Below are positions 10,965 to 55,836 of a stretch of DNA of 64,000 nucleotides, in pieces. The position numbers were made by a program, and so were the translations under genes. Position 1 is the first letter of the stretch. Each line of letters begins with the position of its first letter. The stretch lies in NCBI RefSeq assembly GCF_054482595.1, contig NZ_CM137008.1; one strand, 5' to 3'. The notes under the pieces were generated by a model. The model was not told where the DNA came from. It searched no databases and worked only from the letters and a program-made list of their open reading frames with translations.

Positions 10965-10965
10965 A

Positions 10966-12195
10966 TCAGGGCCAACGTTTAATGATGATGGATGTATTAA
11001 TGCCGCCAAAGGCAAAGTTGTTACTCTGCAAAAACTCACAATCAACCTTGCGGGCTTCATGCATGATGTAATCCAGCGCGCCACAATTCGGGTCTGGTTT
11101 ATTCAGGTTTAGCGTAGGCGCAAACCAACCTTCGCGCATCATTTGCAGACTCATCCAGGCTTCGAGCGCGCCACAGGCACCAAGCGTATGACCAAAATAA
11201 CTTTTCAGCGAGGAGAGCGGCACATTATCACCGTAAATGGTTGCTGTCGCCAGACTTTCTGCCATATCACCGCGATCGGTCGCCGTACCATGCGCTGAAA
11301 TATAGCCGATATCTTGTGCGCTTAACCCGGCGATTTTCAGCGATTGCTCCATACAATACTGCATGGTTTCGCGCTGCGGCTGGGTAATATGTGCCGCGTC
11401 GCAGTTAGTCGCAAAGCCGACGATTTCACCGTAAATGGTCGCGCCGCGCGCTTTGGCGTGCTCCAGTTCTTCGAGAATGAGCGTACCTGCGCCTTCACCA
11501 ATCACCAGCCCGTCGCGGTTTTCATCGAACGGTGAAGGTGTGGTTTTCGGCGCATCATTGTGCTGGCTGGTGGCGAAAAGCGTATCAAATACCGCTGCTT
11601 CTGAAGGACATAACTCTTCGGCACCACCAGCAACCATCACCGTTTGATAACCGTGGCGAATGGCTTCCCACGCATAACCGATTGCCTGGCTGCCGGAAGT
11701 ACAGGCGCTGGAGGTTGGGATCACCCGCCCGCGCAGGCCGAAAAAGAGGCCAGTATTAACGGCGGTGGTGTGCGGCATCATCTGCACATAGGTGGTGCCA
11801 GTGATGTTATTGGTGTGCTTTTCCGTCAGCATGGTGGCGAACTCGCTTACCGGGCCGGTACTGCCGGTCGATGAACCGTACGCAATGCCCGTTTCGCCGC
11901 TGGTTAATATCGGATCGCCAATCAACCCTGCCTGCTCTAACGCCAGCTCGCTGGCACGGGTCGACATTTGCGACACGCGGCCCATCGCACGGATACGCTT
12001 GCGGGTGTAGTGCTCCGGTAGCGTGAAATCATCAACAGGCGCGCCAAGCAGGGTGTGCAGCCCGTCGTAGACCTGCCACTCCGGCATTTTGCGCACCGCA
12101 TTTTCATACGCCAGTAAGCGTGCAGAAACGTCCTGCCAGTTTTCACCAAAGGCAGTCACGCCACCCATTCCTGTAATCACTACGCGACGTGTCAT
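10966..12195 (-). CDS. apeR: Beta-ketoacyl-ACP synthase (APE cluster KS)
   Basis: 409-aa KAS I/II-like protein with active-site Cys context (PTSSACTSGS) and the His pair; the ape letter is assigned by position in the 18-gene order as I recall it. Confidence 0.85.
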   Translation of the reverse strand: MTRRVVITGMGGVTAFGENWQDVSARLLAYENAVRKMPEWQVYDGLHTLLGAPVDDFTLPEHYTRKRIRAMGRVSQMSTRASELALEQAGLIGDPILTSGETGIAYGSSTGSTGPVSEFATMLTEKHTNNITGTTYVQMMPHTTAVNTGLFFGLRGRVIPTSSACTSGSQAIGYAWEAIRHGYQTVMVAGGAEELCPSEAAVFDTLFATSQHNDAPKTTPSPFDENRDGLVIGEGAGTLILEELEHAKARGATIYGEIVGFATNCDAAHITQPQRETMQYCMEQSLKIAGLSAQDIGYISAHGTATDRGDMAESLATATIYGDNVPLSSLKSYFGHTLGACGALEAWMSLQMMREGWFAPTLNLNKPDPNCGALDYIMHEARKVDCEFLQSNNFAFGGINTSIIIKRWP

Positions 12196-12923
12196 AACAT
12201 CCCTCCGTTGATGGAAATAACCTGGCGGGTGACGTAACCCGCAATATCAGACATTAAATAACTGGCAAGCCCGGCAACTTCTTCCGCCTGGCCCATACGT
12301 TTCATGGGGATCATCGACATTGCCTCTTTCAGAGCGCTCTCTTCCATTTCGATCATCCCGGTATCAATAAGCCCTGGCGCGATGCAATTGACGGTGATTT
12401 TGCGCTTTGCGAGTTCGATAGCCAGCGCTTTTGTTGCGCCGATAATTCCGGCTTTGGCAGCGCTGTAATTCACCTGGCCGCGATTGCCCATTACGCCGGA
12501 AACCGAGGACAGCGTGATGATGCGCCCACCCTGGCGCGCGCCGATCATTGGCATAATGCACGGCTGAATGACGTTGTAGAAACTGTCGAGATTGGTGTGG
12601 ATCACCGCATCCCAGTCGTCATCGCTTAAAGCCGGAAAAGCGGCATCGCGGGCGATCCCGGCGTTACTGACCACGCCGTACCAGGCACCGTGTTGCGCGA
12701 TCTCATGCTCCAGCACTTCCCGACACTGTTCGCGGTTTGCGACGTCGAAACTGAGCAAACGCCCGTTACCCCCGTTGGCGACAATGGCATTCAGCGTTTC
12801 CTGAGCGCCTGTGGCGTCACGGTGATAGTGAACGCCAATGTTAAAGCCGTCTGCCGCCAGTTGGCAGGCGATGGCGCGACCAATGCCTTTGCTGGCACCA
12901 GTAACCAGAACTGAACGACTCAT
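12192..12923 (-). CDS. apeQ: 3-oxoacyl-ACP reductase (SDR family, FabG-like)
   Basis: Rossmann motif TGASKGIGRA and SDR catalytic YSAAK; 4-nt overlap with the neighbouring gene. Confidence 0.85.
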   Translation of the reverse strand: MSRSVLVTGASKGIGRAIACQLAADGFNIGVHYHRDATGAQETLNAIVANGGNGRLLSFDVANREQCREVLEHEIAQHGAWYGVVSNAGIARDAAFPALSDDDWDAVIHTNLDSFYNVIQPCIMPMIGARQGGRIITLSSVSGVMGNRGQVNYSAAKAGIIGATKALAIELAKRKITVNCIAPGLIDTGMIEMEESALKEAMSMIPMKRMGQAEEVAGLASYLMSDIAGYVTRQVISINGGML

Positions 12924-13387
12924 CAGGACGCTCCTTGTTGAAACAGGGTGGTAAGTTCTTCCGCGGTCGGCTGGAAGGTGTTAATGCGGCCCGTCGCCTC
13001 GCCGTCGTTGATGCTGCACTCAAAACTGCCGAAGCGATCGTCCTGCATCAGCAGTTTGACGGTAATGGTCAGCGTCTGGCCTGCGGGCAGAATGCCAGCG
13101 GCGCAAAGCAATTCACGCGCGCCCAGTATCATCCCTAACTCAATACTGTTTTTGCCCTGCTGGTGGCGATGCCAGCCAGACCAGACGCCGACGGTTTGCG
13201 CCATCAGTTCAAGGGCAAACCAGCCAGGGAGATTGCCGTCCGGGTCGAGAAACGGTGCCAGTACGCCACTGGGCGAAACCGTCACGCGGCACACCGCGCT
13301 GTCATCGCTGACGCTCACCACGTCTTCCAGCAGTAACATGGGCGCGTCGTGGGGCAGATAAGCGCCGGGGGATAAATAGTGGCTCAC
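12923..13387 (-). CDS. apeP: Hotdog-fold 3-hydroxyacyl-ACP dehydratase
   Basis: 154-aa hotdog-fold protein; partners with the second dehydratase (apeI) in APE clusters. Confidence 0.75.
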   Translation of the reverse strand: MSHYLSPGAYLPHDAPMLLLEDVVSVSDDSAVCRVTVSPSGVLAPFLDPDGNLPGWFALELMAQTVGVWSGWHRHQQGKNSIELGMILGARELLCAAGILPAGQTLTITVKLLMQDDRFGSFECSINDGEATGRINTFQPTAEELTTLFQQGAS

Positions 13388-14562
13388 GAAACCCTCCCGA
13401 GCAGAATGCTGGCGTTATTGCCGCCAAAGGCGAAGGAATTGGACAGGATCACCGGACGTGCCAGCGGCTGCGGTTTTTCGATAATGCCGCAGGGTGGCAG
13501 CGTGGGATCGCGTGGCGACAGGCTGAAATCTTGGGCGGGCAGCGGTAAATCACGCTGTAAGATCAACATACTGATTGCTGCTTCGGTAATGCCCGCCGCG
13601 CCCAGCGTGTGGCCGGTCAAATGTTTGGTGGAGCTGCACGGTACGCGTTCGCCAAACAGGGCGTTAACCACCATCGATTCAATCTGGTCGTTGAGTTGCG
13701 TGGCGGTGCCGTGCAGGTTGATATAGCCGACGTCATCTGGCGTAAGCTGCGCATCGGTCAGTGCCTGATTAATGGCGCGGATCGCCCCTTCGCCCTGCGG
13801 ATGCGGGGCCGAAATATGGTAAGCGTCACTCGATTCACCAACGCCCAGCAATGCGATGGGCTGCGGTTCGCGGGTTAATAACATCAGCCCCGCGCCTTCG
13901 CCAATGGTGATACCTGCGCGGTCACGACCGAACGGCTGACATAAAGTTGGCGAGAGCGATTCGAGGCTGTGAAAACCGTTAATCGGCATCCGGCTCAGGG
14001 TGTCTGCGCCACCCACAATGGCGGCATCGACCAGCCCCGTCTCGATAAGCCTGCGCCCGCTGATCATCGCTCTGGCGCTGGAGGAGCAGGCGGTTGAAAG
14101 GGTATAGGCCGGGCCGTCGAGCGCCAGCCAGTGGCTGAGAAAACGCGACGGATCGCCAAGTTCCTGTTGTGCGTAGTGCCATGTGGTGCTCGGCAGCCCG
14201 TGGGTGCGCAGGTTAACGTGCGTGTCGCCTTCATGCAGGCCGGAGGTGCTGGTGCCAAGTACAATCGCGATGCGCTCGCGACCATATTTCGCTATAGCGT
14301 CATCAACCTGCGGCTGGAGCTGCGCCAGCGCCGCCAGCAGGATCTGATTGTTGCGCGAGCGATGCGCAGCGAATTTTTCCGGGATAAGCGGAAGCTCGCC
14401 ATCCACGCCAGCCAGGACCGCCTGCGGATGCCCCTGCAACCAGCCTGCGCGTGGGCGCATTCCGGGGGCGACACCGCGAGCCAGGTTGGCTGCGATTTCG
14501 TCAAGATTATTTCCCAGGGCGTTGATCATGCCGACGGCGGAAATATAAATCATATCAGTCAC
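13384..14562 (-). CDS. apeO: Beta-ketoacyl-ACP synthase (APE cluster KS)
   Basis: 392-aa KS-family protein with conserved Cys (LSTACSSSARA) and C-terminal SNSFAFGGNNA. Confidence 0.85.
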   Translation of the reverse strand: MTDMIYISAVGMINALGNNLDEIAANLARGVAPGMRPRAGWLQGHPQAVLAGVDGELPLIPEKFAAHRSRNNQILLAALAQLQPQVDDAIAKYGRERIAIVLGTSTSGLHEGDTHVNLRTHGLPSTTWHYAQQELGDPSRFLSHWLALDGPAYTLSTACSSSARAMISGRRLIETGLVDAAIVGGADTLSRMPINGFHSLESLSPTLCQPFGRDRAGITIGEGAGLMLLTREPQPIALLGVGESSDAYHISAPHPQGEGAIRAINQALTDAQLTPDDVGYINLHGTATQLNDQIESMVVNALFGERVPCSSTKHLTGHTLGAAGITEAAISMLILQRDLPLPAQDFSLSPRDPTLPPCGIIEKPQPLARPVILSNSFAFGGNNASILLGRVS

Positions 14563-15139
14563 CTAAGTATTGAATGGTGATGTGGTATTTAAAGACATGC
14601 TGTTCAATGCTGATTGGCACGCGTTTGCCCTTGCGATTCAGATAGGTGATTTCCGTGACCAGCTTGCCGCTGGCGTTACGCAGCTCGCGTTTGTCACCGT
14701 TGTCGCGAAGTGTCCAGCCAGTGGGAAGTTGCGGTTGCCAGGCGCTAATCGGCCAGTGGCTGAGCATTACGTCAGCCAGCACCTGACTTGCGGGCGGCAA
14801 CTGTGGGACGACGATGGATTGCTCGGCGCGTAGCCCTTGCGCATCGTAGGTCAACAGAAACAGGCGAATGCCGACCGACGACAGCCCGGCAAGGGTGATT
14901 TTCTGGTCGTCGGCGTTAAGCATCACTAACAGCGACTGGGTTTTGCCGTTGAAGCTGCCGGTCAACAGTTGCTGGGAATTGACGGCGGGTGAAATCCCTG
15001 GTGCCGGCAGCGTGATGCGCGTGCCAGGTTGCAGCCACGCCTGCGGGCGGCCTTCCTGTTCCGGTTGCGAGTGGCTACAGCCGGTGAGGATAAGCGTAGC
15101 GGTCAGGGCGAGCGCTCGCCAGAATGTGGGTTTGATCAT
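14555..15139 (-). CDS. apeN: Lipoprotein, APE-cluster associated
   Basis: Signal peptide with lipobox LTGC; conserved position between the KS and MMPL genes. Confidence 0.7.
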   Translation of the reverse strand: MIKPTFWRALALTATLILTGCSHSQPEQEGRPQAWLQPGTRITLPAPGISPAVNSQQLLTGSFNGKTQSLLVMLNADDQKITLAGLSSVGIRLFLLTYDAQGLRAEQSIVVPQLPPASQVLADVMLSHWPISAWQPQLPTGWTLRDNGDKRELRNASGKLVTEITYLNRKGKRVPISIEQHVFKYHITIQYLGD

Positions 15140-17454
15140 TTTTTTGTTCTCTTTTTATCGGGCATCGCCAGCGGCGAAAGCAGGAAGGCGGTGAAAATAC
15201 CGCTCACCAGCACAATGCCAAAACTGCTGATGGCCTGGGTGGCGCTGAATACCAGCATTCCCAGCGTCAGCAAGGTGGTGAGCATTGCCAGCGTGATCGC
15301 CAGTAGCGAAGTTAATGGTGTACCGCGCGGATTACTGAAAAACAGCGTGTAGTTGATGCCGATGCCAAGCACCAGCACCAGCGCCAGCAGCGAAAAGAGA
15401 TTCACCGCCTGCCCGCTCATCGCCAGCACCGCCAGACCACAACCCAGCGAAAGCACCGAAGGTACAAGGCTGATAAGCCCTTTGCGCCAGCCGAGACGGG
15501 CCACTGCGCCGCAGGCAATCACCGCCAGCGCCACCAGCAACAAGCCGGTTAAGACATAACGGTAAAGCGCGAACAACTCATCAAAGGTGCTTTTGCGATC
15601 AACCCAGGCAATGCCGCAAGGGTAATATGTGGCGATTTCCTGCATCAACGCGCTACTTTTAACCCCTTCAACCGGCACCAGTACGCCGCTTTCGCCGTTT
15701 TCCAGCGTCAGCCACAGCAGACGCCAGCCTTCACTGGCGGGGCTTGCCAGCCATTCATCAACGTTCACTGGCATGGCGTTGAGATCCGGGTTCACTGCCG
15801 TCAGCCCGGCATTTTGCAGCGCTTTTGTTACTGTCGGGGCCGCCGTTTTCAGCAGTTGTAAATCTTCCTCCTGCCGCGCAAGGGAGTTCAGCGGAATGGT
15901 GCGGTAGTTGCTGATAAGCCCCTCTTTTTTCGCATACTCAAGTGAGGCGGTATATTTCTCCAGTCGCCGCAATGTTTGCTGTGGCGAATCGCCGTAAACC
16001 ACAAACCATTTTTGATCGACGCTTTGTCCGGTCAGGGCGGTAATGGCTTTCTCCTGGGTCAGAATATGCTGCGGCAGCGCCTGTAACTGCGAGATATCGT
16101 CATCGACGCGCAGCATTGACATCCCCGCCAGCGAAAACAGCGCCAGCGCGACGGGCAGACCCAGCGACAGTTTTTTATTGCGCCGCCACGCTGCCAGCCA
16201 GCGCAGCATCAGCGCCATCGCCGGAACCGGACGCACCGGCAGGCCACGGCACAGCCACGGATGCCAGAACAGGACGGTCAGACAGGAGGCGCTCAACCCG
16301 ACGGCGGCAAAAATCGCCATCTGGCGAATGCCGGGGAAGGGGGCGAGCATCATAATCAGATATGCCGCCACGGTGGTGAGCAGCGCCAGCAGCAGGGCAT
16401 TGCGTACTTTCGCCAGGCTTTGCCACGGCGAAACGTCGTTGCCGTGCACCATCCGCTCGGTGAGATAATAGAGCGTGTAGTCAGCGGAAATGCCGATAAC
16501 GCTCATGCTCATCACCAGCGTCATCAGGTGTAATTCACCGAAAATCAATAAAGTGGCGACCGTTCCCGCCAGCGCGCCGATGCCGATGGAAATCACGCAA
16601 AGCAGCAACGGGCGCAAAGAGCGGAACACCGCCACAATCAGCAATATCACCCCCAGCAGCGTTGCCACGCCCAGGGTTGAGATATCCTGCTTCGCCTGTT
16701 GGCTGGCGTAATCGCTGTAAAACACCGTGCCGCGCGAAAGCAGCTGCGCCTGCGGGTAACGCGTTTTCAGATCCTTTTCCAGCGTATTCAGGGTCGTGAT
16801 GAGCTGGTGGGTTTGCTGCATATCAAACGACGATCCCGCCAGTTCACCGTGCAGCAGATACCAGTAGTTGCCCTGGGGATCCTGCGTCACCAGCCAGCCG
16901 TCCATCAGCCGCAAACGCTGGCCGTTTTTCGCCATCGCCAGCTGCGAGCCGCGCATTAACATCAGCGGATCGTTTTGCAGCTCCTTGCCGCTTACCCCGG
17001 AGAACGCAGAATAAAGCTGGGAGAGGATCCACTGCGCCTGCGCTTCGCCGCCGTTTTGCAGGCGCGCGCGGGTGTCGGGGTCAATCAGGCCGTTGCGGTG
17101 CTGCCAGAAAAACGCTCCCCACGCTTGCTGGCTGGCGGCATCCATTGGCCCTTTAACGTCGCCGAGCGCAGCGGATTTTTGCAGCAGCGTCAGCCACTCC
17201 TGAGCGACCCTGGGATTAGCCTCTTTACCGGGGCTGACCAGCCACACCAGTTGGCGGTCCAGACGCTGCATAAAGCCGTCATTCAGCGCTGGGGGAATAT
17301 CGCCCATAGCCTGTTTGGGTAACATAGCCAGCACGCTACTGTTCAGCCGTGATTGCGGCAGCAGGATCAGCAACGCCGCCGCCATGACCAGGCAGACTAG
17401 CCCCCATAACAGCGCGGGGCGTTTACTGGGCGGCAAAACGTTGGCGTTCGTCAT
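15136..17454 (-). CDS. apeM: MMPL/RND-family membrane exporter
   Basis: 772-aa protein with two hydrophobic bundles separated by periplasmic domains, typical of MMPL transporters. Confidence 0.8.
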   Translation of the reverse strand: MTNANVLPPSKRPALLWGLVCLVMAAALLILLPQSRLNSSVLAMLPKQAMGDIPPALNDGFMQRLDRQLVWLVSPGKEANPRVAQEWLTLLQKSAALGDVKGPMDAASQQAWGAFFWQHRNGLIDPDTRARLQNGGEAQAQWILSQLYSAFSGVSGKELQNDPLMLMRGSQLAMAKNGQRLRLMDGWLVTQDPQGNYWYLLHGELAGSSFDMQQTHQLITTLNTLEKDLKTRYPQAQLLSRGTVFYSDYASQQAKQDISTLGVATLLGVILLIVAVFRSLRPLLLCVISIGIGALAGTVATLLIFGELHLMTLVMSMSVIGISADYTLYYLTERMVHGNDVSPWQSLAKVRNALLLALLTTVAAYLIMMLAPFPGIRQMAIFAAVGLSASCLTVLFWHPWLCRGLPVRPVPAMALMLRWLAAWRRNKKLSLGLPVALALFSLAGMSMLRVDDDISQLQALPQHILTQEKAITALTGQSVDQKWFVVYGDSPQQTLRRLEKYTASLEYAKKEGLISNYRTIPLNSLARQEEDLQLLKTAAPTVTKALQNAGLTAVNPDLNAMPVNVDEWLASPASEGWRLLWLTLENGESGVLVPVEGVKSSALMQEIATYYPCGIAWVDRKSTFDELFALYRYVLTGLLLVALAVIACGAVARLGWRKGLISLVPSVLSLGCGLAVLAMSGQAVNLFSLLALVLVLGIGINYTLFFSNPRGTPLTSLLAITLAMLTTLLTLGMLVFSATQAISSFGIVLVSGIFTAFLLSPLAMPDKKRTKK

Positions 17455-18028
17455 CGGTCAGTTGCGCTGGCGTCAGTTGATGTTGGGTAAGAGCAATATC
17501 GGTGCGATCGCCCTGTTTATCATTAAGTTGAATGCTCTCCAGATAGGTTTTCCCGGCGAGATCGATGGTGTTGAAAATTTTATCCAGCGGCGTGGTGGTC
17601 GGCGTCAGGCGCAGCGTCCAGCGGCCTTCGCCTTTGTCAGCAAATTCGACGCGGAAGTTTTGTTCCAGCACTTTGCGATCGGCCTGGAACAGCGCGCGCA
17701 GCAGGTGGTTAAACTGGAACATCTGCGGGTTGTTTTCTGCCGTGATGATTTGCGGCGGCTGACCGTTGATCACCTGCACCATGCGTTTATCATCCAGCAA
17801 TAGCTGCATGGGGAACGGTGAGGTTTGATCCCACAATAACCCCTGGTCGCGGGCGATCAACATCTGACCCTGAGATCGCAGCGGCTGCGGCAGATCTTTA
17901 ATCGTCCGGGTTTGATCAAAATGGGCGCGGATCACCGGTTGTTCGGTAAAGCGTTGCTGAAGATCGTCCAGGGTCAGGGCGCTCACAAACGGGCTAATCA
18001 GCAGCGCCAGCAGCGGTAAAAATTTCAT
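17423..18028 (-). CDS. apeL: LolA-like outer-membrane lipoprotein carrier
   Basis: 201-aa secreted protein with signal peptide (MKFLPLLALLISPFVSA) and LolA-fold-like length/composition. Confidence 0.7.
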   Translation of the reverse strand: MKFLPLLALLISPFVSALTLDDLQQRFTEQPVIRAHFDQTRTIKDLPQPLRSQGQMLIARDQGLLWDQTSPFPMQLLLDDKRMVQVINGQPPQIITAENNPQMFQFNHLLRALFQADRKVLEQNFRVEFADKGEGRWTLRLTPTTTPLDKIFNTIDLAGKTYLESIQLNDKQGDRTDIALTQHQLTPAQLTDDERQRFAAQ

Positions 18029-18447
18029 GGTTTGACTCCCATGCGTTCAAACAGAATATCGGGGCTGACAAAGCACAGTTCGCGACTTTGCTCGTCGACC
18101 GCGACCTGAATGGTGTATCCGGTGGTGGCGCGTTTGCCCGTTTCGGCATCGAAAATCTGATAGCCAATCCGCAGACGGTTTTCGAACTCTTCGATATGCG
18201 CACGCACGCGGATGCGTTGCTCAAAGGTGAGGGCGTGGCGATATTTCACCCGCGCATCGACCACTGGCCACAAATAACCGGACTCTTTCATCTGCCGATA
18301 GCCGTAATTGAACTGGTTGAGCAGCGCCTCGCGGGCCACTTCAAAGTAGCGAAAATAGTTACCGTGCCAGGCCACGCCCATCATATCGACGTCGTGAAAG
18401 GGAATGGTCAGCTCGACTTCAGCGGTAAATCGGGGATCGTTAAGCAC
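18025..18447 (-). CDS. apeK: Hotdog-fold acyl thioesterase (4HBT-like)
   Basis: 140-aa protein resembling the YbgC/4-hydroxybenzoyl-CoA thioesterase family. Confidence 0.75.
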   Translation of the reverse strand: MLNDPRFTAEVELTIPFHDVDMMGVAWHGNYFRYFEVAREALLNQFNYGYRQMKESGYLWPVVDARVKYRHALTFEQRIRVRAHIEEFENRLRIGYQIFDAETGKRATTGYTIQVAVDEQSRELCFVSPDILFERMGVKP

Positions 18448-18450
18448 CCT

Positions 18451-20127
18451 TTACTCCTTGTCCTGAATTTCCGGCAGTTGCCAGAAATCGAAAAAATTAA
18501 ACCAGTCGAGGGGCGACTGGAGCGCGTAATGTTCCAGACGCGCGGCGTAGTGGTCGATAGCGTTTTGCAGCGCCTGCTGGCGTTCGCCACGCGGCAGTTG
18601 CAGCGGGTCGGCAAAGCTTTCGCAGTGAATATGCAGCTTGCCGTGCTGGCGTAGGGCGAAAATCAGATTCACTGGGCAGCGCAAAATAGAGGCGAGAATA
18701 AACGGCCCCTGTGGGAAGGGCGCAGGCTGGCCCATAAACGGACTCCAGCAGACGCGCCAGTCGCCGCCGCGTTGCGGGGTGACGGCGATGCGGTCACCGA
18801 CAATCGCCACCCATTCGCCGTTATCCAGCTTCTCTTTCAGCAGGATGGCGGTTTCTGGGCCGATATCTGTTACCGGCATCAGGTTAATGCCTGCCTGAGG
18901 AGCCATCTCCTGCATTATCTGTTTAAAGCGTTGGGCGTTTTCGCTAAACACCAGCGCGTTAATGGTTTTGTAGCCCTGAATTTTTGCCAGCGCCCGGCAC
19001 ACTTCCACATCGCCAAGATGCGAGGCCAGCAGCAATTTGCCGCGCGGATCGCGGACGTCAAGCGCCGCTTCTGCGCCTGGCGCAAACAGCACATCACGCC
19101 CCAGTTGTAGCTCGCCGCGCCAGCTGGCGATTTTGTCGAGCATGGCATTACCGAAACGTAGAAAGTGCTGATAGCTGTTGAGTTTTGCCGCCTGTGGTTG
19201 ATGCTGTCGTACACGGGCGAGCCAGTCTTGCGACGCTTTGCGCGCACGAGAAGCAGTGAGCCAGTAGACGCCCACCACCGGGTAAAGCAGCGCGCTAAAC
19301 GCCGTTCTTCCCAGCAGACGCCAGACCAGCAGCATCAGGCGCATTCCCCATAATCCTTTCACTTCACTCTGCCGCGCCCAGTGGCTGGAAGAGCGGCGCA
19401 TCAGCAGTGAAGGAATACGCGGTAACATGCCGAAAAATAGACGCGTGTGCATGAGCGAGATGCGGACGTTATCTTTCAGGGCATCAAAATGCGAAAGCCC
19501 GTCCAGTGGATAGGTGACGCGGGTCGGCACGAAATAGCTGGTGTTTCCCTGCCAGTAGAGGCGCACCATCACTTCAGTGTCGAAATCCATCCGCTTGCCG
19601 ATGGTGGCGTGTTTTGCCAGTTGCAGCGTTGGCGCAACCGGATAAACGCGAAAGCCGCACATGCTGTCTTTCAGTTGCAGGGAGAGCGTTTCGATCCATA
19701 CCCAGACGTGGGTGACCCAGCGCCCGTAAAGCCGTGAGCGGGGGATGGAGTCATCGTAAATTGGCTGGCCGGAGATCAGCGCCGCAGGGTGTTGTTCAGC
19801 GACTGCCAGCAGTTTGGGGATATCTTCAATCGCATGTTGACCGTCAGCATCCACCTGCACTGCATGGCTGAACCCTGCGTCTGCCGCTGCCTGTAAGCCA
19901 CGCATCACTGCCGCGCCTTTACCTGCGTTTTCTGCTAAGCGAATTAAGGTCACGCCAGGCTGTTCGCTAACCAGATTATCCAGTTGCTGTTGCGTGGCGG
20001 CATCGCTGCCGTCGTCCACCACAATACAGGGGAGATTAAATGGCTTAAGACGCGCCAGCACGCCCGGCATCATCGCGCCGTGGTTATAGCAGGGGATCAA
20101 CACGCAGGGAGAAAAGTTTACCGACAT
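18451..20127 (-). CDS. apeJ: Fusion of family-2 glycosyltransferase and LpxL/HtrB-like lipid acyltransferase
   Basis: N-terminus has the GT2 signature (IPCYN...VVDDGSD); C-terminal half resembles lauroyl/myristoyl lipid A acyltransferases. Confidence 0.75.
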   Translation of the reverse strand: MSVNFSPCVLIPCYNHGAMMPGVLARLKPFNLPCIVVDDGSDAATQQQLDNLVSEQPGVTLIRLAENAGKGAAVMRGLQAAADAGFSHAVQVDADGQHAIEDIPKLLAVAEQHPAALISGQPIYDDSIPRSRLYGRWVTHVWVWIETLSLQLKDSMCGFRVYPVAPTLQLAKHATIGKRMDFDTEVMVRLYWQGNTSYFVPTRVTYPLDGLSHFDALKDNVRISLMHTRLFFGMLPRIPSLLMRRSSSHWARQSEVKGLWGMRLMLLVWRLLGRTAFSALLYPVVGVYWLTASRARKASQDWLARVRQHQPQAAKLNSYQHFLRFGNAMLDKIASWRGELQLGRDVLFAPGAEAALDVRDPRGKLLLASHLGDVEVCRALAKIQGYKTINALVFSENAQRFKQIMQEMAPQAGINLMPVTDIGPETAILLKEKLDNGEWVAIVGDRIAVTPQRGGDWRVCWSPFMGQPAPFPQGPFILASILRCPVNLIFALRQHGKLHIHCESFADPLQLPRGERQQALQNAIDHYAARLEHYALQSPLDWFNFFDFWQLPEIQDKE

Positions 20128-20471
20128 AGGCGGATCTTCCCGCTACTGGCGGTGTGGCGGGCGTCACCGTCGTGACGCTGATAGCTAAAGCTCAGAATCT
20201 GGCGTTCTTCCTGCCAGTTAAGCGCGAGCGTGACGCGGTTTTCCGGCAGCAACGGAGACTGGAATTTTATGTTCTGAATGGAGTGAAAACGCCAGCCAGG
20301 CGCGAGCAGATTGAGCGCGTAGCTCATCGCCCAGTCGATTTGCGCAACTCCTGGGAGTAATGGTTGCACGGCAAAATGACCGCGAAACCAGAACAGATCC
20401 GCCCTGAGATGCAGAACAATTTCAAGGTGATTCGTTTGTGCCTGATGGCGCTCGATTTCATGGGGCTTCAT
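20118..20471 (-). CDS. apeI: Hotdog-fold dehydratase (FabA/FabZ-like)
   Basis: FabZ-like core (FRGHFAVQPLLPGV); start placed at ATG 20471 (MKPHEIERH) with AGGAG 7 nt upstream; the ORF track begins at a GTG 30 nt further upstream. Confidence 0.75.
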   Translation of the reverse strand: MKPHEIERHQAQTNHLEIVLHLRADLFWFRGHFAVQPLLPGVAQIDWAMSYALNLLAPGWRFHSIQNIKFQSPLLPENRVTLALNWQEERQILSFSYQRHDGDARHTASSGKIRLCR

Positions 20472-21819
20472 GAAATAACTCCTGTAATTGCGCATAGACA
20501 CGCTTGTTCATACTGTTTACTGGCATTTCATCAATAACGCGCCAGTAACGCGGAATAGCAACTGGCTCCAGCGTCGGGCGCAGTAAACGCCGCCAGGTCA
20601 TTTCCTGGCTATGCCCGCCGCCGTTCTGCCATTGCAGATGAGCTTCGTCATCCAGCACCAGCAAAACGCCTATGCTCTGACGCCCGCCGCGCGTAACGGG
20701 AACTGCCGCCGCCTCGCGAATGCCGTCCAGCGCCAGTAGACGTTGTTCTACTTCCTGGAGTGAAATACGTTTTTCTTCAATCTTAACGATGCGCCCACGA
20801 CGCCCCATCAGATGGAACTGACCATCTTCGCTAAGCTGTAAGATATCGTCGAGTAACAGGCCGTTATCTTCCGCTATCAGCGGTGAAAAGAGGCGAAAGG
20901 CATCGCCTTCGGCTTGGAACTGCATACCTGGGAGGGGTAGCCAGCGGCGTTGCTCTTGTTCGCGGTAACGCCAGGCGATGACGCCGGTTTCCGTGCTGCC
21001 GTAGATTTCATCAGGCCAGACGCGCAGCCAGCTTGCGGTGTGTTGTACATCCTGCCACGGCAGCTCACCGCCAGCAGAGAGAAGCACCTGAACGGGTGGC
21101 GGAGAAAGCTGGGTATCCAGGCGCTTCAAAAATGCCGGGCTGCTGATGAAGATATAGCGATGCTGATGACTCAACGCGGCAAACTGTTCGACATACCAGA
21201 GCATGGCGGCGTGCAGCGGTAATCCCAACGCCATGGGCAGGAAAACACGAAAAGTCAGGCCGTACAAATGCTGCGGCAATACGGAACCGACGACACGACA
21301 ACCCGCCAGACGTGCGCCTAATCGTTCAGCCAGCAGTTCTGCTTCACGATCCAGCAAATGAACAGGTTTAATCACCCGTTTCGGCTGTCCCGTGGAACCG
21401 GAGGTAAACAGCTCGATAAAAGCCTCTGGCGCTATAGCGGCAAAGGTGAAGGATTGTGTCGCGACTTGTGGGGAACTTGCTACCAACAGCCATGAACCTT
21501 GCCAGTTAAGTTCGCTGTCGCTAAGCACACCATCGAACAGTTCACGTTGCTCGTTAAGCTGGATGACACGGTTATGCCCCGGAAGCACCGGTGTTTTTCC
21601 GGCGTGTAGCGTGGCGAGCAGGGCAACGATAAACAGATAGCTGTTCTCAAAGCACAGCGCCCAGCGTTCACCCGGCTGTTGCTGCAAGCGGCAGATAAGT
21701 TGCGCGACATCGTGACGCAAATCGCCCAGCGTCCAGGTGCTTTCGTCCAGCCACGCAATGGGCGTGTCATCAGGGCGTGGCGCAGTCAGCCAGCGTGCAA
21801 GCGGTAAGGTCTGCTTCAT
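20458..21819 (-). CDS. apeH: AMP-dependent acyl/aryl-ACP ligase (adenylating starter-unit enzyme)
   Basis: ANL-superfamily motifs (TSGSTGQPK, YGSTETG); start placed at ATG 21819 forming an ATGA overlap with the upstream gene. Confidence 0.8.
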   Translation of the reverse strand: MKQTLPLARWLTAPRPDDTPIAWLDESTWTLGDLRHDVAQLICRLQQQPGERWALCFENSYLFIVALLATLHAGKTPVLPGHNRVIQLNEQRELFDGVLSDSELNWQGSWLLVASSPQVATQSFTFAAIAPEAFIELFTSGSTGQPKRVIKPVHLLDREAELLAERLGARLAGCRVVGSVLPQHLYGLTFRVFLPMALGLPLHAAMLWYVEQFAALSHQHRYIFISSPAFLKRLDTQLSPPPVQVLLSAGGELPWQDVQHTASWLRVWPDEIYGSTETGVIAWRYREQEQRRWLPLPGMQFQAEGDAFRLFSPLIAEDNGLLLDDILQLSEDGQFHLMGRRGRIVKIEEKRISLQEVEQRLLALDGIREAAAVPVTRGGRQSIGVLLVLDDEAHLQWQNGGGHSQEMTWRRLLRPTLEPVAIPRYWRVIDEMPVNSMNKRVYAQLQELFHEAP

Positions 21820-22397
21820 GCGCGATCTCTTTTCATCACCTGACGGCGCACCAGCCATTCACCAGCCATTAATGTTCCCATCAACAAATAAGCAATCATG
21901 CCGTTCCAGGCGGTCCATAACGACATATCGGCATAAAGCGCGGTAAAGAGGGCAATTCCACCGTTAATGATGAAAAAGCCGCACCAGATTTGCGTGACGT
22001 GGCGGGTATAGCGCACGCCCTTTTCCGGGAGGTCTGGCTCCTGCAACCGCGCCAGCCGCTCAACTATCGGCATTGCCGACCACAGCGAACCGCCAAAAAC
22101 CGCCAGCATGACCGCGTTAACCACTACCGGGTAAAACAGCAGTAGCTGGTGCGTTTTCAACATAAAGCTGGCGACACATAATGCGATGCCCACGACAGCG
22201 ACGAGTTGCGTGACGGCTTGTAAAGGCCCCGCCTGGCGACGGGTCTGGCGCAGACGCAACAAAAGCAGCAACGCCATTAGCGGTAACAGCCAGTGCAGGC
22301 CGTTATGCGCTAAGCCAAACCAAATCACAAACGGCCAGGCGAGCAGCAATAATCCAGTCAGCAGCTTAATCATCGGTAGCGAGCGAATGCCCGACAT
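21816..22397 (-). CDS. apeG: Integral membrane protein, APE-cluster associated
   Basis: 193-aa hydrophobic protein with several predicted TM helices; conserved position. Confidence 0.6.
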   Translation of the reverse strand: MSGIRSLPMIKLLTGLLLLAWPFVIWFGLAHNGLHWLLPLMALLLLLRLRQTRRQAGPLQAVTQLVAVVGIALCVASFMLKTHQLLLFYPVVVNAVMLAVFGGSLWSAMPIVERLARLQEPDLPEKGVRYTRHVTQIWCGFFIINGGIALFTALYADMSLWTAWNGMIAYLLMGTLMAGEWLVRRQVMKRDRA

Positions 22398-22401
22398 CAG
22401 A

Positions 22402-22653
22402 TCAGGCTTCTTGTAGCAGGCGTTCTACAGCCTCGACGACATCCTGGACTGTACGCACGGCTTTAAACTCTTCCGGCTTGATTTTCTTACCGGTTTTCTT
22501 TTGCAGGTGCACAATCATGTCAACGGCGTCGATGCTGTCCAGTTCCAGATCTTCGTACAGGCGCGCTTCAGGTTTGATGTCCTGCGGATCGATTTCAAAC
22601 AGCTTAACCAGCAGGGCTGAGACTTCCTGATAGACGGTTTGTTGTTCTGTCAT
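22402..22653 (-). CDS. apeF: Acyl carrier protein
   Basis: 83-aa acidic protein with phosphopantetheine attachment motif LELDSIDAVDM. Confidence 0.85.
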   Translation of the reverse strand: MTEQQTVYQEVSALLVKLFEIDPQDIKPEARLYEDLELDSIDAVDMIVHLQKKTGKKIKPEEFKAVRTVQDVVEAVERLLQEA

Positions 22654-22664
22654 GATGGCTTTCC

Positions 22665-22922
22665 TCAGGCACGTTGCGCAGCAATGAAAGAGGCCAGAGT
22701 GGCGACGGAGAAAAAGTGCTGACGCATCTCTTCGCTTTCCGCAGAGAGCACGATGCCGTACTCATTTTTTACTGCCAGTCCCAGTTCCAGGGCATCGATA
22801 GAGTCCAGCCCTAAACCGTCGCCAAACAGCGGCGCGTCGGTATCGATATCATCAGGCGTCAACTCGTCCAGATTGAGGGTGCTGATGATGAGGTTTTTAA
22901 TTTCCAGATAAAGCGCTTGCAT
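22665..22922 (-). CDS. apeE: Acyl carrier protein
   Basis: 85-aa protein with attachment motif LGLDSIDALEL; tandem with a second ACP. Confidence 0.85.
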   Translation of the reverse strand: MQALYLEIKNLIISTLNLDELTPDDIDTDAPLFGDGLGLDSIDALELGLAVKNEYGIVLSAESEEMRQHFFSVATLASFIAAQRA

Positions 22923-23736
22923 TATTTATTCCTGAGAGAGGTAAACAACCTTGTTGTAATTGAAGCAAAAGATGCCGGTTTAACTGCCTTGCTGCCAGCG
23001 CCGGTTCTTGTGAAGTTGCATCGTAAAATTTATTGATTTCAACCCGACCATGGACTGCAACCGTAAAAAACGGCCGGTCAGGTGGAACGTCATACCATTT
23101 ACTTTGTTTATCCAGCAGATGCTCGCTACAGCCGATCGTCACGATGCGTAAATCGCTGGCACAGCGCACGGCAATATTCGCCGCCCCGCGCTGCAGCGTC
23201 ATTTTTTCACCGGGCTTCGTTCGCGTGCCTTCGGGGAAAATCAGGATAGTGTCACCCTGTGCCAGTCGCTGTTGGCAGCGGGGTAACAGGGTTTCAGCTT
23301 CGCTGTTGATTAAATAATCTGCCGCCCGCACGACGCCGCCAAGAAAAGGATTTTTTAACAGCGCGCTTTTCACCAGGCAGTCAGTTTCTGGCATGACTGA
23401 CGCCAGCAGCACGTAATCGATCAGCGTGGGATGATTGGCTACGACGAGGCAACCGCGTTCCTGACGTAAAATTTCAGCGCCATCAATACGATAATCCAGC
23501 ACGCCAAGCCCTTTCGCGACAGTTAAAAACAGGCGAAAACTGGCGGCAATGCTGCGACGCGCCAAACGACGGCGGCGGGAAGTATCCCACACCAAAACTA
23601 ACAATATGTTAAACCACACGACAGAAAGCAGCAGGCCGCCGAGACCAAACAGGGCAAAACATAACCCGGTCATGACCAGTCGCCAGGTCCACTCCAGACG
23701 TGACAGCAGCTTACTCATCCACGGCTCCAGCGCCAC
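22897..23736 (-). CDS. apeD: Lysophospholipid (PlsC-like) acyltransferase
   Basis: N-terminal TM segment followed by an acyltransferase core with the HPTLIDY and FPEGTR motif pair. Confidence 0.75.
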   Translation of the reverse strand: MALEPWMSKLLSRLEWTWRLVMTGLCFALFGLGGLLLSVVWFNILLVLVWDTSRRRRLARRSIAASFRLFLTVAKGLGVLDYRIDGAEILRQERGCLVVANHPTLIDYVLLASVMPETDCLVKSALLKNPFLGGVVRAADYLINSEAETLLPRCQQRLAQGDTILIFPEGTRTKPGEKMTLQRGAANIAVRCASDLRIVTIGCSEHLLDKQSKWYDVPPDRPFFTVAVHGRVEINKFYDATSQEPALAARQLNRHLLLQLQQGCLPLSGINNASALSGN

Positions 23737-24437
23737 TGTACGCGCTCGCCAGGCAGTGAAAATGTGTCCGCATTTTGTAAATAGTGCTGTAAAAACAACA
23801 TGCTTTGCGGCAGTGTTGTTTCATTACCCGCAATGGCTGACTGCGTTTCACATTGCCACTCATCGCCAGCTTCAATCACCAGCGCGACGGCGTACGGCCA
23901 GGTCGGCATTTCTGCGGGCAGTTGTGGATGATAGAACTCAGGCAGAAAGCCATCAAAATCGACCATCAGCACGCGCTGGTATCCCGCTTGTAACAGGCTA
24001 AGCACTTCACACAAACCTTGCTGGAAAGTGTCGCGACCAGCAGAAAGCGATGACGAAACGATCGGCTGTTTGGCCGCAATGGTCAGGTTACCCACGGAAG
24101 AGTTGTGTACTGAAAGTGCAAAGTCGGTCGGAGAAAGCGCCTGTTCGGTTGCCAGTGCATGAACAATGCGGTAATTGCGCTCCAGTTCGCCATGACGACT
24201 GGTATACAAAACGGCGTCTGGCTGATGGCGGCGTAGCATTGCCAGACCGCATTCAACAGCCAGTTTGCTGCCTGAACTGAGGCGGCGGGCGGTCATCATT
24301 GGCAGTTCACTTAATTTTGCCAACGGCGCGGCAGGGTCAATCGCCCACGGCTGGCGCGACCATGCTTGCCATTGCTGCGCTTCGCTAAGTCCAGGCGCCA
24401 GTGCCTGCCAGTCGGTAATATTTAATGTAAATTTCAT
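23715..24437 (-). CDS. apeC: Ketosynthase-like chain-length-factor protein (no intact KS catalytic triad seen)
   Basis: 240-aa KS-related protein lacking an obvious active-site Cys context; start placed at ATG 24437 (MKFTLNI). Confidence 0.65.
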   Translation of the reverse strand: MKFTLNITDWQALAPGLSEAQQWQAWSRQPWAIDPAAPLAKLSELPMMTARRLSSGSKLAVECGLAMLRRHQPDAVLYTSRHGELERNYRIVHALATEQALSPTDFALSVHNSSVGNLTIAAKQPIVSSSLSAGRDTFQQGLCEVLSLLQAGYQRVLMVDFDGFLPEFYHPQLPAEMPTWPYAVALVIEAGDEWQCETQSAIAGNETTLPQSMLFLQHYLQNADTFSLPGERVQWRWSRG

Positions 24438-24477
24438 CAACGCGCGCCCGCGGTAAACCAAAATTATTAAGTGACGA

Positions 24478-25545
24478 TTATTTCTTTTGGCATATCAAAA
24501 GTGTATGCCCAACGCCTAAATTATCGTGGCGCTCTGCTACCTGGAATCCTGCTTTATTCAGATAGTCGTAAAATTTCTCTGCACTATAGAAACGGCTGTT
24601 ACCGTTTGCCATGCAGGTAAAATAAAGTGAGGACGCGTTCAGGCTAAATGATGCTGCTTCAAACCGCTGCGCATCCCAGAACAACTCCATGATGCAAACT
24701 TTTGCGCCAGGCTTCATTACGCTGGCAATTTTGCTGAGTATGCTAATTATTTGTTCGGGTGAAAAACAGTCTAAAAATTGGCTCATCCACCAGATATCAG
24801 CCTCGCCCGGTAATGGGGCATCGCTTAGCATATCCACCGCATGGAAATCTATGCGATCAGAAAAACCTGCATTCGCGATATTTTCTTTCGCTAGTACGAT
24901 TTGTTGTGGCAGATCTAATAACGTCACGGCGATGTTTTCATTGTATTTGCAGCAACGCAAAGCCCACTTACCCGTATTGCCGCCTACATCGTACAATGTT
25001 GTGGGGTTGTTGGCGAATACATAAGGCAGTGCGGCGTTAAATGCGCCATCTGAATAGTAATGATCAAACGCAAACCAGCTTTCACGAGCGGCGTCTGGTA
25101 ATTGCGAAAGTGCCGGATATATCGTCGACCAGTCGCCAAATACTTTTAACCCGGAAGGTTTTCCTTCATTGAGTGAATCGGCGAGGAAGAAGAGCCCCTG
25201 GTAACAGACATCCTGGGTGAAATCCATATTCACGCGAGTCATAGTGTCATGCAGGAGGTAATGACCGATTTTCGCCAGGTAATAAATTCCCTCTTTACAG
25301 GTAATAATTCGCCCGCTTAAGCCCATATCTAACAGAACGCTGGCAGCATATTCGTTGATATGGCTATGTTCGGTGATATCAGCCAGCGTTGCGCCATGTT
25401 TGCCTTGCCGATCCAGATATGAAAGTACACCCGCATTACGTAGGCAGAGTGCTGTTTGAAAAAGCATAGGGGCAAAGGCAATGCGTTGAGCTTCGGTAAT
25501 CGCATCCAGTGCGCTAAGAGAATCCTGTTCGTACATGTTGGGCAC
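24478..25545 (-). CDS. apeB: SAM-dependent methyltransferase (O-methyltransferase-like)
   Basis: Class I methyltransferase fold (VGGNTGKWA...LLDLP); an alternative ATG start lies at 25536. Confidence 0.75.
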   Translation of the reverse strand: MPNMYEQDSLSALDAITEAQRIAFAPMLFQTALCLRNAGVLSYLDRQGKHGATLADITEHSHINEYAASVLLDMGLSGRIITCKEGIYYLAKIGHYLLHDTMTRVNMDFTQDVCYQGLFFLADSLNEGKPSGLKVFGDWSTIYPALSQLPDAARESWFAFDHYYSDGAFNAALPYVFANNPTTLYDVGGNTGKWALRCCKYNENIAVTLLDLPQQIVLAKENIANAGFSDRIDFHAVDMLSDAPLPGEADIWWMSQFLDCFSPEQIISILSKIASVMKPGAKVCIMELFWDAQRFEAASFSLNASSLYFTCMANGNSRFYSAEKFYDYLNKAGFQVAERHDNLGVGHTLLICQKK

Positions 25546-25604
25546 AACCTGTTAAGAGGGAATTAAATTATTATCGGACCGCAACGGCCCGACTTTAGGA
25601 AGAA

Positions 25605-25994
25605 TTATAAATCTGCGCCCGCTGACAAATTCAGTTGAATATCTTTGTCGAGATTGCGGACCCAGCGATTGTAGTTTTTATGAATTTGTCCGCCTGACGC
25701 TTGTAGGTTCTGGCTATTTTCATAATTGATATCGTAGCTGGATGCCGTGTAGTTAATGCGTATTTCCGCTGAATGATCGCGTGACTGTTGACGTGCTTTA
25801 ATTATGCCTTGTCCGGCTTCGGACATAATCCATTTGCGTTCAACGCCAGCTTTCAGAATCGCTTTTTTCACTTGTTCCTGGGTATGACCAGCGCTGACGG
25901 TTGAGTGAACCTGATCAATTGGCGCAGTACGCGCGCAACCTGCTAAAGCACCCACAACAGCAATAGCCGCAAACCATTTCATGTAATGTCTCAT
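25605..25994 (-). CDS. apeA: Lipoprotein, first gene of the APE operon
   Basis: Signal peptide with lipobox LAGC; an alternative start (MKWFAAI) lies at 25982; followed upstream by a 380-bp AT-rich promoter region. Confidence 0.6.
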   Translation of the reverse strand: MRHYMKWFAAIAVVGALAGCARTAPIDQVHSTVSAGHTQEQVKKAILKAGVERKWIMSEAGQGIIKARQQSRDHSAEIRINYTASSYDINYENSQNLQASGGQIHKNYNRWVRNLDKDIQLNLSAGADL

Positions 25995-26323
25995 TAGAAC
26001 CCCATTAAAGTATTGTTTTTACGAGTAAAGCAAGATTTAACTGTAATTGCTGGCATCACTATTCTTTATTTAGAGAAAAAATTACTTGTGAGATAAGTCA
26101 GTAAGTGCACATCAGAGTAAAAATCTCTGAAATGACTAAATTACTGCCAGCAGGGACCAACTATAAGTGAGTGAGAAAAATGAGGCAATAAAAATAACAC
26201 AATGTTATCAGTGCATTCTTTGAGAAGGATTTAATCGCTATTCGGCGTTTATATATATTTGACTTAAGGAATGGTTTTTTTAAATTAATTTTCTGAATAA
26301 TGTTTCATCATTTCCTCAAATCA

Positions 26324-26354
26324 AATGGCCACTGTTAGATAAACGGTGGCCATT
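26324..26354 (-). terminator. Candidate terminator hairpin downstream of yhhT
   Basis: Inverted repeat AATGGCCAC-N12-GTGGCCATT 20 nt past the yhhT stop; T-rich tract is weak. Confidence 0.4.
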
Positions 26355-26373
26355 GCCTGCTCAGGAGGTGCTA

Positions 26374-27423
26374 TTAACCCGGTAACCGACTTTTCGGTCT
26401 GCCCGGCCCCAGTAAAATCGCCAGTTTGCTACCGCCTTTGGTGGTTTCCATCCAGATTTTACACACGCTGGTTAATGGCACCGAAAGTAGCATCCCTACC
26501 GGGCCGAGCAGCCATCCCCAAATTAACAATGAAAGAAATACCACCATGGTGGACATCCCCAGGCGATGGCCCATCATCCGTGGTTCTAAAATATTGCCGA
26601 TAACCATATGGACAACTAAAAACAATGCGCCGACCAGAATACATTCGTAAACACCATTAAACAGCAGCACCTGAATCATTGGCGGTACGGCGGAAATTAC
26701 CGCGCCGATATTGGGCACGTAGTTGAGCAAAAACGCCAGTACTGCCCACATCAGCGCAAACTGCACCCCCATCAGCTCCAGCCCCAGCCAGACGATGACA
26801 CCTGTCCATAAACTGAGTAGCGTCTTTAACGCCAGATAATGCGAAACGCCTTTAAGTGCGCGGTGTAATCCTGCGATGTGAATCTGTGGGTTATTCAGCG
26901 CAAAACGCATTTTGTAAGGGACGTGGCGCACTTCAAATAGCATGAAAACAACGGTCATCACCAGCAAAAGCACGCTCGCCATTGCCCCGGAAAGCCCGGT
27001 CATTAGCGCTGTGGTGAAGGTAACCACTTTTTCCGAGTCCATCCGCTGCAGCATTCGCTCCGGCGACATATGCAAATTAAGAAAAGGCAACATCTCCTGC
27101 AATTTAAAAAGTTTGCGCGTCAGCTCCTTATTAAACTTCGGCAGCATAGAGATAAATTCGTTAAACGATGCCGCCAGTACGCCGACCAGCGCGGTTAGAG
27201 TGATCAGCATCACCACCACCACAATCGTAATGGCAACGGGGCGTTTTACTCCCCGTCGAATAAACCAGGTAACGAGCGGGTTGAGGACGATGGCAAAAAA
27301 CAGCGCCAGTAACAGCTGCACAATGATATCTGCCGCTGCGTGAATGCCCGCGAGGATCACTACCAGCGAGGCCAGCTTGAGCAGAATGTGCATGCCCGTT
27401 TTATCGGGTTGAGGGGTTTCCAT
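26374..27423 (-). CDS. yhhT: AI-2E family inner-membrane transporter YhhT
   Basis: 349-aa polytopic protein starting METPQPDK; the ORF track begins 81 nt further upstream. Confidence 0.9.
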   Translation of the reverse strand: METPQPDKTGMHILLKLASLVVILAGIHAAADIIVQLLLALFFAIVLNPLVTWFIRRGVKRPVAITIVVVVMLITLTALVGVLAASFNEFISMLPKFNKELTRKLFKLQEMLPFLNLHMSPERMLQRMDSEKVVTFTTALMTGLSGAMASVLLLVMTVVFMLFEVRHVPYKMRFALNNPQIHIAGLHRALKGVSHYLALKTLLSLWTGVIVWLGLELMGVQFALMWAVLAFLLNYVPNIGAVISAVPPMIQVLLFNGVYECILVGALFLVVHMVIGNILEPRMMGHRLGMSTMVVFLSLLIWGWLLGPVGMLLSVPLTSVCKIWMETTKGGSKLAILLGPGRPKSRLPG

Positions 27424-27554
27424 TGGGGCTTCCTTGTGACTTTTTGTATTAAGTGTAGCGGGAGTCACGCCAGCAATATTCTGATTCTTACTGCTGATTT
27501 TCACGTCAGCACGTGGTAAAAATGAAACACTGTTGTAAAAATGTGGTGATCCTC

Positions 27555-55039: not shown

Positions 55040-55046
55040 GGTTAGC

Positions 55047-55078
55047 GGCCCTCTTCGTGGGAAGAGGGCTGTTTTCTT
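55047..55078 (+). terminator. Rho-independent terminator of ggt
   Basis: Hairpin GGCCCTCTTC-gtgg-GAAGAGGGCT followed by GTTTTCTT. Confidence 0.8.
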
Positions 55079-55824: not shown

Positions 55825-55836
55825 TGTGGCATATGA

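Follow-up and report, generated by a model that had tools for sequence, protein, structure and literature searches.

Few biosynthetic clusters are commoner in Gram-negative bacteria than those for aryl polyenes (APE), which affect oxidative-stress tolerance and biofilm formation. Such clusters generally have no regulator gene of their own, and the field states that the control of APE expression is unknown (bioRxiv 10.64898/2026.01.21.700819). The question raised by the locus described here is where the transcription of an APE operon situated directly behind yhhT would start, and by what means it would be controlled. The analysis was carried out on a stretch of 64,000 nucleotides (hereafter, the window), with special attention to the non-coding DNA between yhhT and apeA.

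The yhhT-apeA gap and the operon behind it

Gene names and positions were taken from the list of open reading frames and from the annotation of the identical strain XH990 (NZ_CP019359.1, 288001 to 352000); the region from 25900 to 26450 is 100% identical to that of Escherichia coli XH990. Read along the minus strand, the window carries yhhT, the gap, the gene for an apeA-like lipoprotein, 17 further genes, acpT, and nikA, in this order (Table 1). The gap extends from 25995 to 26373 (379 bp), is non-coding, and is flanked on the minus strand by the stop codon of yhhT and the ATG of apeA (25994-25992). The form of yhhT annotated by NCBI is shorter, with its start downstream of 27504.

For its part, the lipoprotein gene starts at 25982 in the NCBI annotation of XH990, 12 nt inside the ATG at 25994. 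The latter is the better start codon, since the homologues of other genera are mostly 129 aa long and start at this position, and the second ATG lacks conservation, being replaced by ATA in CFT073 and by ATT in Citrobacter.

The G+C content of the gap is 0.332 (33.2%), versus 0.45 to 0.55 in the flanking genes and 0.53 in the whole window, and only 2.4% of the 379-bp segments of the 64 kb are equally AT rich. The value is nevertheless within the range of neighbouring regulatory gaps, as illustrated by the nearby panM-livK gap (0.331).

The cluster comprises 18 ape genes plus acpT. The annotated set apeA-apeR encodes KS and CLF, two ACPs, KR, DH, AMP-ligase, acyl- and glycosyltransferases, a LolA-like protein, an MMPL transporter, a DUF3261 protein, and a lipoprotein, and it shows 92% DNA identity over 14.9 kb to the experimentally characterised cluster of CFT073, in agreement with its assignment as an aryl-polyene cluster. 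The genes are tightly packed, with most of them overlapping and the largest internal gaps measuring 68 and 40 nt, and the whole operon would presumably be driven from the yhhT-apeA gap. An earlier note, made from the letters of the window, had described an AT-rich gap of about 380 bp ahead of an APE operon of 15.6 kb (which corresponds to apeA through acpT) and had stated that the cluster encodes no regulator. Both statements were confirmed, the annotation of XH990 showing no regulator gene within the ape cluster.

At the distal end of the cluster, the ATG of acpT lies 1 nt after the stop codon of apeR (TGA-T-ATG, 10962-10968), so that the phosphopantetheinyl transferase is probably translationally coupled to the cluster that it serves.

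Table 1. Features of the yhhT-apeA region and of the operon that follows it (positions in the window)
Feature	Position	Strand	Basis
yhhT, AI-2E family transporter	26374..27504	-	ORF list, XH990 annotation; stop codon 26374-26376
Stem-loop, probable intrinsic terminator of yhhT	26324..26354	-	Inverted repeat, fold energy
Interrupted U-tract UGAUUUGAGGAA	26312..26323	-	Read from sequence
AT-rich tract, terminator to promoter	26189..26311	.	G+C 0.31-0.33 in 200-bp windows
A/T block ACATTGTGTTATTTTTA (gene strand) adjoining -35	26189..26205		ATTT 90-100% conserved in 10-sequence alignment
-35 hexamer TTGCCT (candidate)	26183..26188	-	Promoter scan; TTG invariant, 10 sequences, 5 genera
-10 hexamer TATAGT (candidate), 17 nt after -35	26160..26165	-	Promoter scan, scoring, alignment
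Predicted transcription start, ~7 nt after -10	26151..26154	-	Promoter geometry
Predicted 5' untranslated leader, ~159 nt, AU-rich	25995..26153	-	Fold, Rfam, promoter geometry
Shine-Dalgarno GGGG, 5 nt upstream of apeA ATG	26000..26003	-	Columns invariant or nearly so in two alignments
apeA-like lipoprotein, first cluster gene, 129 aa, lipobox LAGC	25605..25994	-	ORF list, homologues
Conserved GC-rich stem-loop apeA-apeB, without U-tract	25573..25593	-	Folding of region after apeA, 21 loci
apeB to apeR (end 10966) and acpT (10377-10964), rest of presumed transcription unit	10377..25604	-	Annotation

Distribution of the gap

The gap was present in 569 of 5,426 complete E. coli genomes (about a tenth), including O157:H7. 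In the E. coli genomes without it, the match to the window begins at 26378, in the last sense codon of yhhT. In K-12 and CFT073, acpT is found 54 nt behind yhhT with no hairpin between the two genes, and the last 19 nt of apeR (10966-10984 in the window) are kept ahead of acpT. The breakpoints fall exactly at the yhhT stop codon (26377/26378) and, on the other side, within apeR, 19 nt before its end, and the junction is joined by a 38-nt filler that was absent from the window when the K-12 version was searched for in it. Judged from its sequence, the yhhT-acpT junction of K-12 and CFT073 is a deletion scar and not an empty insertion site, because the last 19 nt of apeR remain before acpT. The deletion leaves acpT without its partner genes at the yhhT locus.

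Of 80 loci with an ApeA relative from other species, 28 had yhhT immediately ahead of apeA and in the same orientation, and one further locus carried only a short yhhT fragment at its edge. The genera with this order include Citrobacter, Klebsiella, Lelliottia, Enterobacter, Kosakonia, Leclercia, Huaxiibacter, Superficieibacter, and Pluralibacter. The 28 gaps measured mostly 265 to 511 bp (one reached 696 bp) and had 30 to 43% G+C, versus 48 to 57% over the initial 2 kb of the same loci, counted from the start of apeA. A BLAST search with the gap sequence of the window against other species matched only another Escherichia, with 90% identity. Across these loci it is the layout and the composition of the gap that are conserved, not the sequence. 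Since the yhhT-apeA synteny is common to many enterobacterial genera and the cluster has a host-like G+C content, the ape cluster is, on this evidence, not a recent foreign island and is ancestral in the Enterobacteriaceae.

As a separate observation, the most AT-rich stretch of the window is located at 55002-57094, between ggt and yhhY, where the G+C content falls to 27%. In this variable region, which looks more foreign than the APE locus does, there are a hypothetical gene and a DUF4225 gene with a frameshift.

Relation to the EDL933 and CFT073 clusters

The O-island 138 of E. coli O157:H7 EDL933 (Z4849-Z4866 region; ECs4324-4342 in Sakai) is the same locus, with the same genes between yhhT and acpT. 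Its gap is of the same length as that of the window, with one difference (at 26035) among the positions compared. Array data exist for the O-island 138 genes (PMC2907692, PMC2654852), and no promoter or start-site map for the island was found in the searchable literature.

The APE cluster of CFT073 (c1186-c1204, apeA-apeR; PMC8253772) is likewise devoid of a regulator gene and has a long gap (∼515 bp) before apeA. Most of its genes are ∼97% identical to those of the window, whereas apeA and apeH (20266-22065) show DNA identities of only ∼70% and ∼65%, respectively. The CFT073 cluster is located in a different island, the yhhT locus of that strain carrying the K-12-type deletion, and the DNA upstream of its apeA is not homologous to that of the window; its likely promoter is TTGACA-18-TATATT, ∼100 nt before the ATG. 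The two clusters therefore form a mosaic, in which the replaced patches are apeH and apeA (25400-25994) plus everything upstream, including the whole control region.

Upstream homology with CFT073 did not go beyond a 10-nt identity, TTGGTCCCTG, which probably arose by chance (∼0.2 expected matches). In the window it occupies 26151-26160, overlapping the -10 hexamer and the predicted start, and in CFT073 it lies ∼140 nt upstream of apeA, at a similar distance.

Two consequences follow from the unrelated control regions. On the one hand, the regulation data for CFT073, such as the induction of its APE genes that follows chronic oxidative stress (bioRxiv 10.64898/2026.01.21.700819), were obtained with a different sequence ahead of apeA and are not simply transferable to the yhhT-linked cluster. 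On the other hand, the CFT073 copy works from unrelated upstream DNA, so that the gap DNA of the window is not essential for the cluster as such. Beyond that, the yhhT-apeA region is an ordinary one.

A conserved candidate promoter in the gap

A consensus promoter scan of the region from 25400 to 26700 gave a single match on the minus strand, TTGCCT-17-TATAGT (26188-26160), with 9 of 12 matching positions. The -35 hexamer is weak, with three of six matches to TTGACA. The gap was also examined with our own log-odds scoring, corrected for its AT content and compared with 1,000 dinucleotide shuffles. The same site was the top-scoring one of the gap, with 11.5 bits versus 6.9 for the next; 3.5% of the shuffles reached this value (P ∼0.035), the score in a single sequence being modestly above chance.

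The scoring was extended to nine other yhhT-apeA gaps, those of E1V33 (Escherichia sp.), five Citrobacter, K. indica, K. michiganensis, and Superficieibacter. In all nine, the site that independently scored highest aligned with the 26188-26160 site of the window. E1V33 retains TTGCCT-17-TATAGT, the five Citrobacter, K. indica, and K. michiganensis have TTGATA or TTGATG-17-TATACT as their best site (11.4 to 12.3 bits), and Superficieibacter has TTGATC-17-TACGAT (9.9 bits). The distance from the end of the -10 hexamer to the ATG was 165 nt in the window, 167 nt in E1V33, and 182 to 210 nt in the other eight gaps. In the alignment of the ten sequences, which represent five genera, TTG and TA..T were invariant or nearly so, and the remaining hexamer positions were 60 to 90% conserved. 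The mean column identity was ∼0.87 for the -35 hexamer and ∼0.90 for the -10 hexamer (columns 0.7 to 1.0), versus ∼0.60 for the 17-nt spacer. Other clades had conserved candidates of their own at -117 to -178, namely, TTGCAG-17-TATCAT and TTGCCA or TTGCTA-16-TAAATT or CATAAT.

When four Escherichia sequences were compared, one of them with differences at 37 of the 379 gap positions, the longest stretch of the gap without substitutions was 26153-26205, a segment that takes in both the promoter and its upstream A/T block. With its location left free, a run of this length is not significant (P = 0.11), yet it coincides with the independently predicted site.

The 26188-26160 site is thus a clear candidate for a sigma-70-type promoter conserved across several enterobacterial genera. 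Based on the scoring of the site, the cross-genus alignment, and the substitution-free run in Escherichia, transcription is predicted to start near 26153, which would give a leader of ∼159 nt; the start corresponds to about 4,420,007-4,420,011 (+) in EDL933 (NZ_CP008957.1). The A/T block at 26189-26205 could be an UP element or a binding site for a nucleoid protein. The whole resembles a standard sigma-70 promoter with a long leader in its 17-nt spacing, in the A/T block upstream of the -35 hexamer, and in the GC-rich hairpin and U residues after the preceding stop codon, and it differs from the standard case in its weak -35 hexamer, in the interrupted U-tract of the terminator, and in that the start is predicted only. 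A promoter-like site on the plus strand (26259-26286) was discarded, given that its score was no better than chance and that it points into the yhhT terminator.

The earlier note had taken this DNA for a leader and promoter region without a recognisable regulator site. That description was accurate, but the conserved sigma-70-type site had been missed; the interpretation was reasonable, although incomplete, since a specific conserved candidate promoter can be named.

Sigma factor, expression, and proposed mechanism

Promoters selective for sigma-S are recognised by a C at -13 and an extended -10 region of the TCTATACTT type. This hallmark was absent from the window, which reads CTTATAGTT, with T at -13; the Citrobacter versions of the -10 region are TCTATACTT or CCTATACTT. 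In stationary-phase EDL933, the expression of apeC, -D, -F, -G, -I, -L, and -M was 2- to 6-fold higher in an rpoS mutant (PMC2907692). In the same phase, the array signals reached log2 values of 7 to 10 for the promoter-proximal genes and were lower for the distal ones (PMC2907692). This pattern fits a sigma-70 promoter and a single co-regulated unit, with the cluster expressed rather than silent; given such clear signals, the cluster is not fully silent in EDL933. We infer that the sigma factor acting at 26188-26160 would be the housekeeping one.

In our judgement, the gap is probably an ordinary control region, serving both the transcription and the translation of the yhhT-linked aryl-polyene operon (apeA-apeR plus acpT). 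The transcription of yhhT would end, at least partly, at the stem-loop 26354-26324, behind which come ∼135 bp that are very AT rich. RNA polymerase carrying the housekeeping sigma factor would start at TTGCCT-17-TATAGT, near 26153, and the transcript would begin with an AU-rich, unstructured leader of ∼159 nt, display the GGGG ribosome-binding site before apeA, and continue through the packed genes to acpT. Global factors would presumably act either on the long leader or on the AT-rich sequence surrounding the promoter. Both the extent of the transcript and any regulator are what we infer from this arrangement. A named promoter and a start prediction for the yhhT-linked version ease the design of reporter fusions, pull-downs, and chromatin immunoprecipitation.

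Regulator sites and possible silencing

Crude consensus strings were used to scan the gap for sites of 18 regulators (CRP, FNR, IHF, Fur, OxyR, ArcA, Fis, Lrp, LexA, RcsAB, CpxR, PhoP, OmpR, H-NS, SoxS/MarA, FadR, FabR, and NsrR) and of sigma-E, -54, -32, and -S. None of these 22 motifs matched the gap better than chance (all shuffle P values ≥0.10), in concordance, within the limits of such crude scans, with the earlier note's failure to recognise a regulator site. The literature found under the locus tags Z4849-Z4854 and ECs4324-4329 consisted of expression studies only, with no regulators or promoters, and no H-NS occupancy for the yhhT-apeA gap was found in the literature searched. The H-NS ChAP-seq study PMC4720273 deals with strains SE11, SE15, and K-12 and with core genes, the yhhT-apeA gap falling outside its coverage. 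In its S2 Table, yhhT and acpT are marked FALSE in all three logical columns, which presumably stands for "unbound".

Control of the gap by H-NS would therefore be a guess from AT content alone. A stronger form of it, which takes up a suggestion of the earlier note and which we regard as possible but rather unlikely, is that the gap is chiefly a silencing platform. H-NS, or a nucleoid protein related to it, would coat the AT-rich DNA and hold the operon silent, and relief would come from an anti-silencer or from a signal, for example temperature. The 67% A+T over 379 bp, a value among the most AT-rich 2.4% of the window, points in this direction, as does the conservation of AT-richness, but not of sequence, in the 28 gaps of other genera. 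In CFT073, the cluster shows stronger expression at 37°C than at 23°C (PMC12890032) and is cited in PMC8253772 as being induced by TosR overexpression, and APE production in Frischella perrara needs IHF (PMC10104596). However, the upstream DNA to which the data from CFT073 and Frischella apply is not homologous to the gap, the AT-rich tract is short and has genes of 50% G+C on both sides, and the stationary-phase array signals of EDL933 are clear (PMC2907692). Furthermore, the best match of the gap to the high-affinity motif of H-NS (TCGATAAATT-like) had 3 mismatches in 10 positions, no better than in shuffles, and the best IHF match was no better than chance. The locus is similar to H-NS-silenced promoters such as LEE1, bgl, and proU in its AT-rich control DNA and in that the cluster has no dedicated regulator, and it differs from them in that only the gap is AT rich, the genes have a host-like G+C content, the locus is ancestral, and the genes are expressed in EDL933. 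Silencing would in any case be compatible with an ordinary control region and does not exclude it.

A wider proposal, of which we are doubtful, is that terminator, AT tract, sigma-70 promoter, and long AU-rich leader, whose layout is conserved although their sequence is not, would act as a module providing a single control point for a cluster devoid of its own regulator. The module would be gated at the DNA level by nucleoid-associated proteins (H-NS, IHF), at the level of the leader by small RNAs and Hfq, or at both. A swap of this module, such as the one between the yhhT-linked and the CFT073 island copies, would then rewire the timing of APE production among E. coli lineages.

Probable termination behind yhhT and possible read-through

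The hairpin at 26324-26354 begins 19 nt past the stop codon of yhhT and has the stem AAUGGCCACCGUU / AACAGUGGCCAUU, with 13-nt arms that include one mismatch and a 5-nt loop. It was the minimum-energy structure (-17.7 kcal/mol; z = -3.19), none of 200 shuffles being as stable. The U-tract behind it is interrupted (UUUGAUUUGAGG), the tail being UGAUUUGAGG, or AUUUGAUUU if the basal A-U pairs open. A terminator scan made no call at this hairpin, presumably because of the mismatch inside the stem. The two stem substitutions of E1V33 leave the pairing intact or better it, being a C to U that gives a G-U pair and an A to G that repairs the C-A mismatch. Most other genera have another short hairpin at this place directly behind yhhT, namely, CTACC-loop-GGTAG with TTTT after it. 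Since other genera carry a terminator-like hairpin at the same place, the window's hairpin probably terminates yhhT, the role to which it had been attributed before; the structure is real by its z score, and its position fits.

In many genera, a short element, CCTACCAACC-GGGTAGTTTT, in the first ∼30 nt after the yhhT stop codon is conserved in sequence, unlike the remaining gap. As a hairpin it is weak (5 bp), and Escherichia carries a different, stronger hairpin instead. The element may terminate transcription or serve another purpose.

Since the U-tract of the window is interrupted, some read-through from yhhT is possible and may add to expression. It is unlikely, on the other hand, that much of the transcription of the operon originates outside the gap, be it by read-through over a leaky terminator, from promoters within the cluster (such as one in apeA ahead of apeB), or from both. 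Besides the interrupted U-tract, this idea draws on the arrangement in K-12 and CFT073 described above, on a conserved stem-loop between apeA and apeB, and on the wording "native promoter(s)" used by the authors of the CFT073 cluster. Against it are the strength of the hairpin and the retention of a terminator-like one there across genera, the conserved promoter between hairpin and apeA, the size of the internal gaps (40 and 68 nt), too short for separate control regions, and the co-regulation of apeC to apeM in EDL933, which fits a single unit (PMC2907692).

The stem-loop between apeA and apeB is GUCGGGCC-GUUGC-GGUCCGAU, and the same stem, with varying loops, was found in most of the 21 loci folded, among them those of CFT073, Citrobacter, Klebsiella, Lelliottia, Enterobacter, Kosakonia, Serratia, and Pantoea. 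As it has no U-tract, it is more likely to be a transcript stabiliser, a processing site, or a partial terminator setting the ratio of ApeA to the enzymes. It could limit the transcription that reaches apeB and beyond, and it is thus relevant to whether all genes behind it are driven equally by the promoter.

The leader of apeA

That the long leader is itself a regulatory RNA (a riboswitch, a thermosensor, a target of small RNAs, or the carrier of a leader peptide whose UAAUG overlap couples it to apeA) seems very improbable: its length of 160 to 200 nt is conserved and a 21-codon upstream open reading frame (26059-25994) ends in UAAUG at the apeA start, with the three E1V33 substitutions in it all at third codon positions (one of them changing Met to Ile), but the fold was no more stable than that of shuffles (z = -0.40, no significant structure), an Rfam scan of 25000-27500 at E ≤ 1 gave no match, the reading frame has no clear ribosome-binding site and no conserved equivalent in 26 aligned gaps of other genera, and the blocks of the leader are poorly conserved. 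Being unconserved outside Escherichia, the reading frame is retained only as an improbable candidate. The sole long-range helix of the fold, of 8 bp (26152-26145 with 26055-26048), was rejected as a structured element, since it is broken in E1V33 without compensation.

When k-mers shared over 28 aligned gaps (the window included) were sought, only words of the terminator and of the ribosome-binding site recurred. The latter is the sole strongly conserved element of the leader, reading GGGG in the window and GGGAG or GGAG in other genera.
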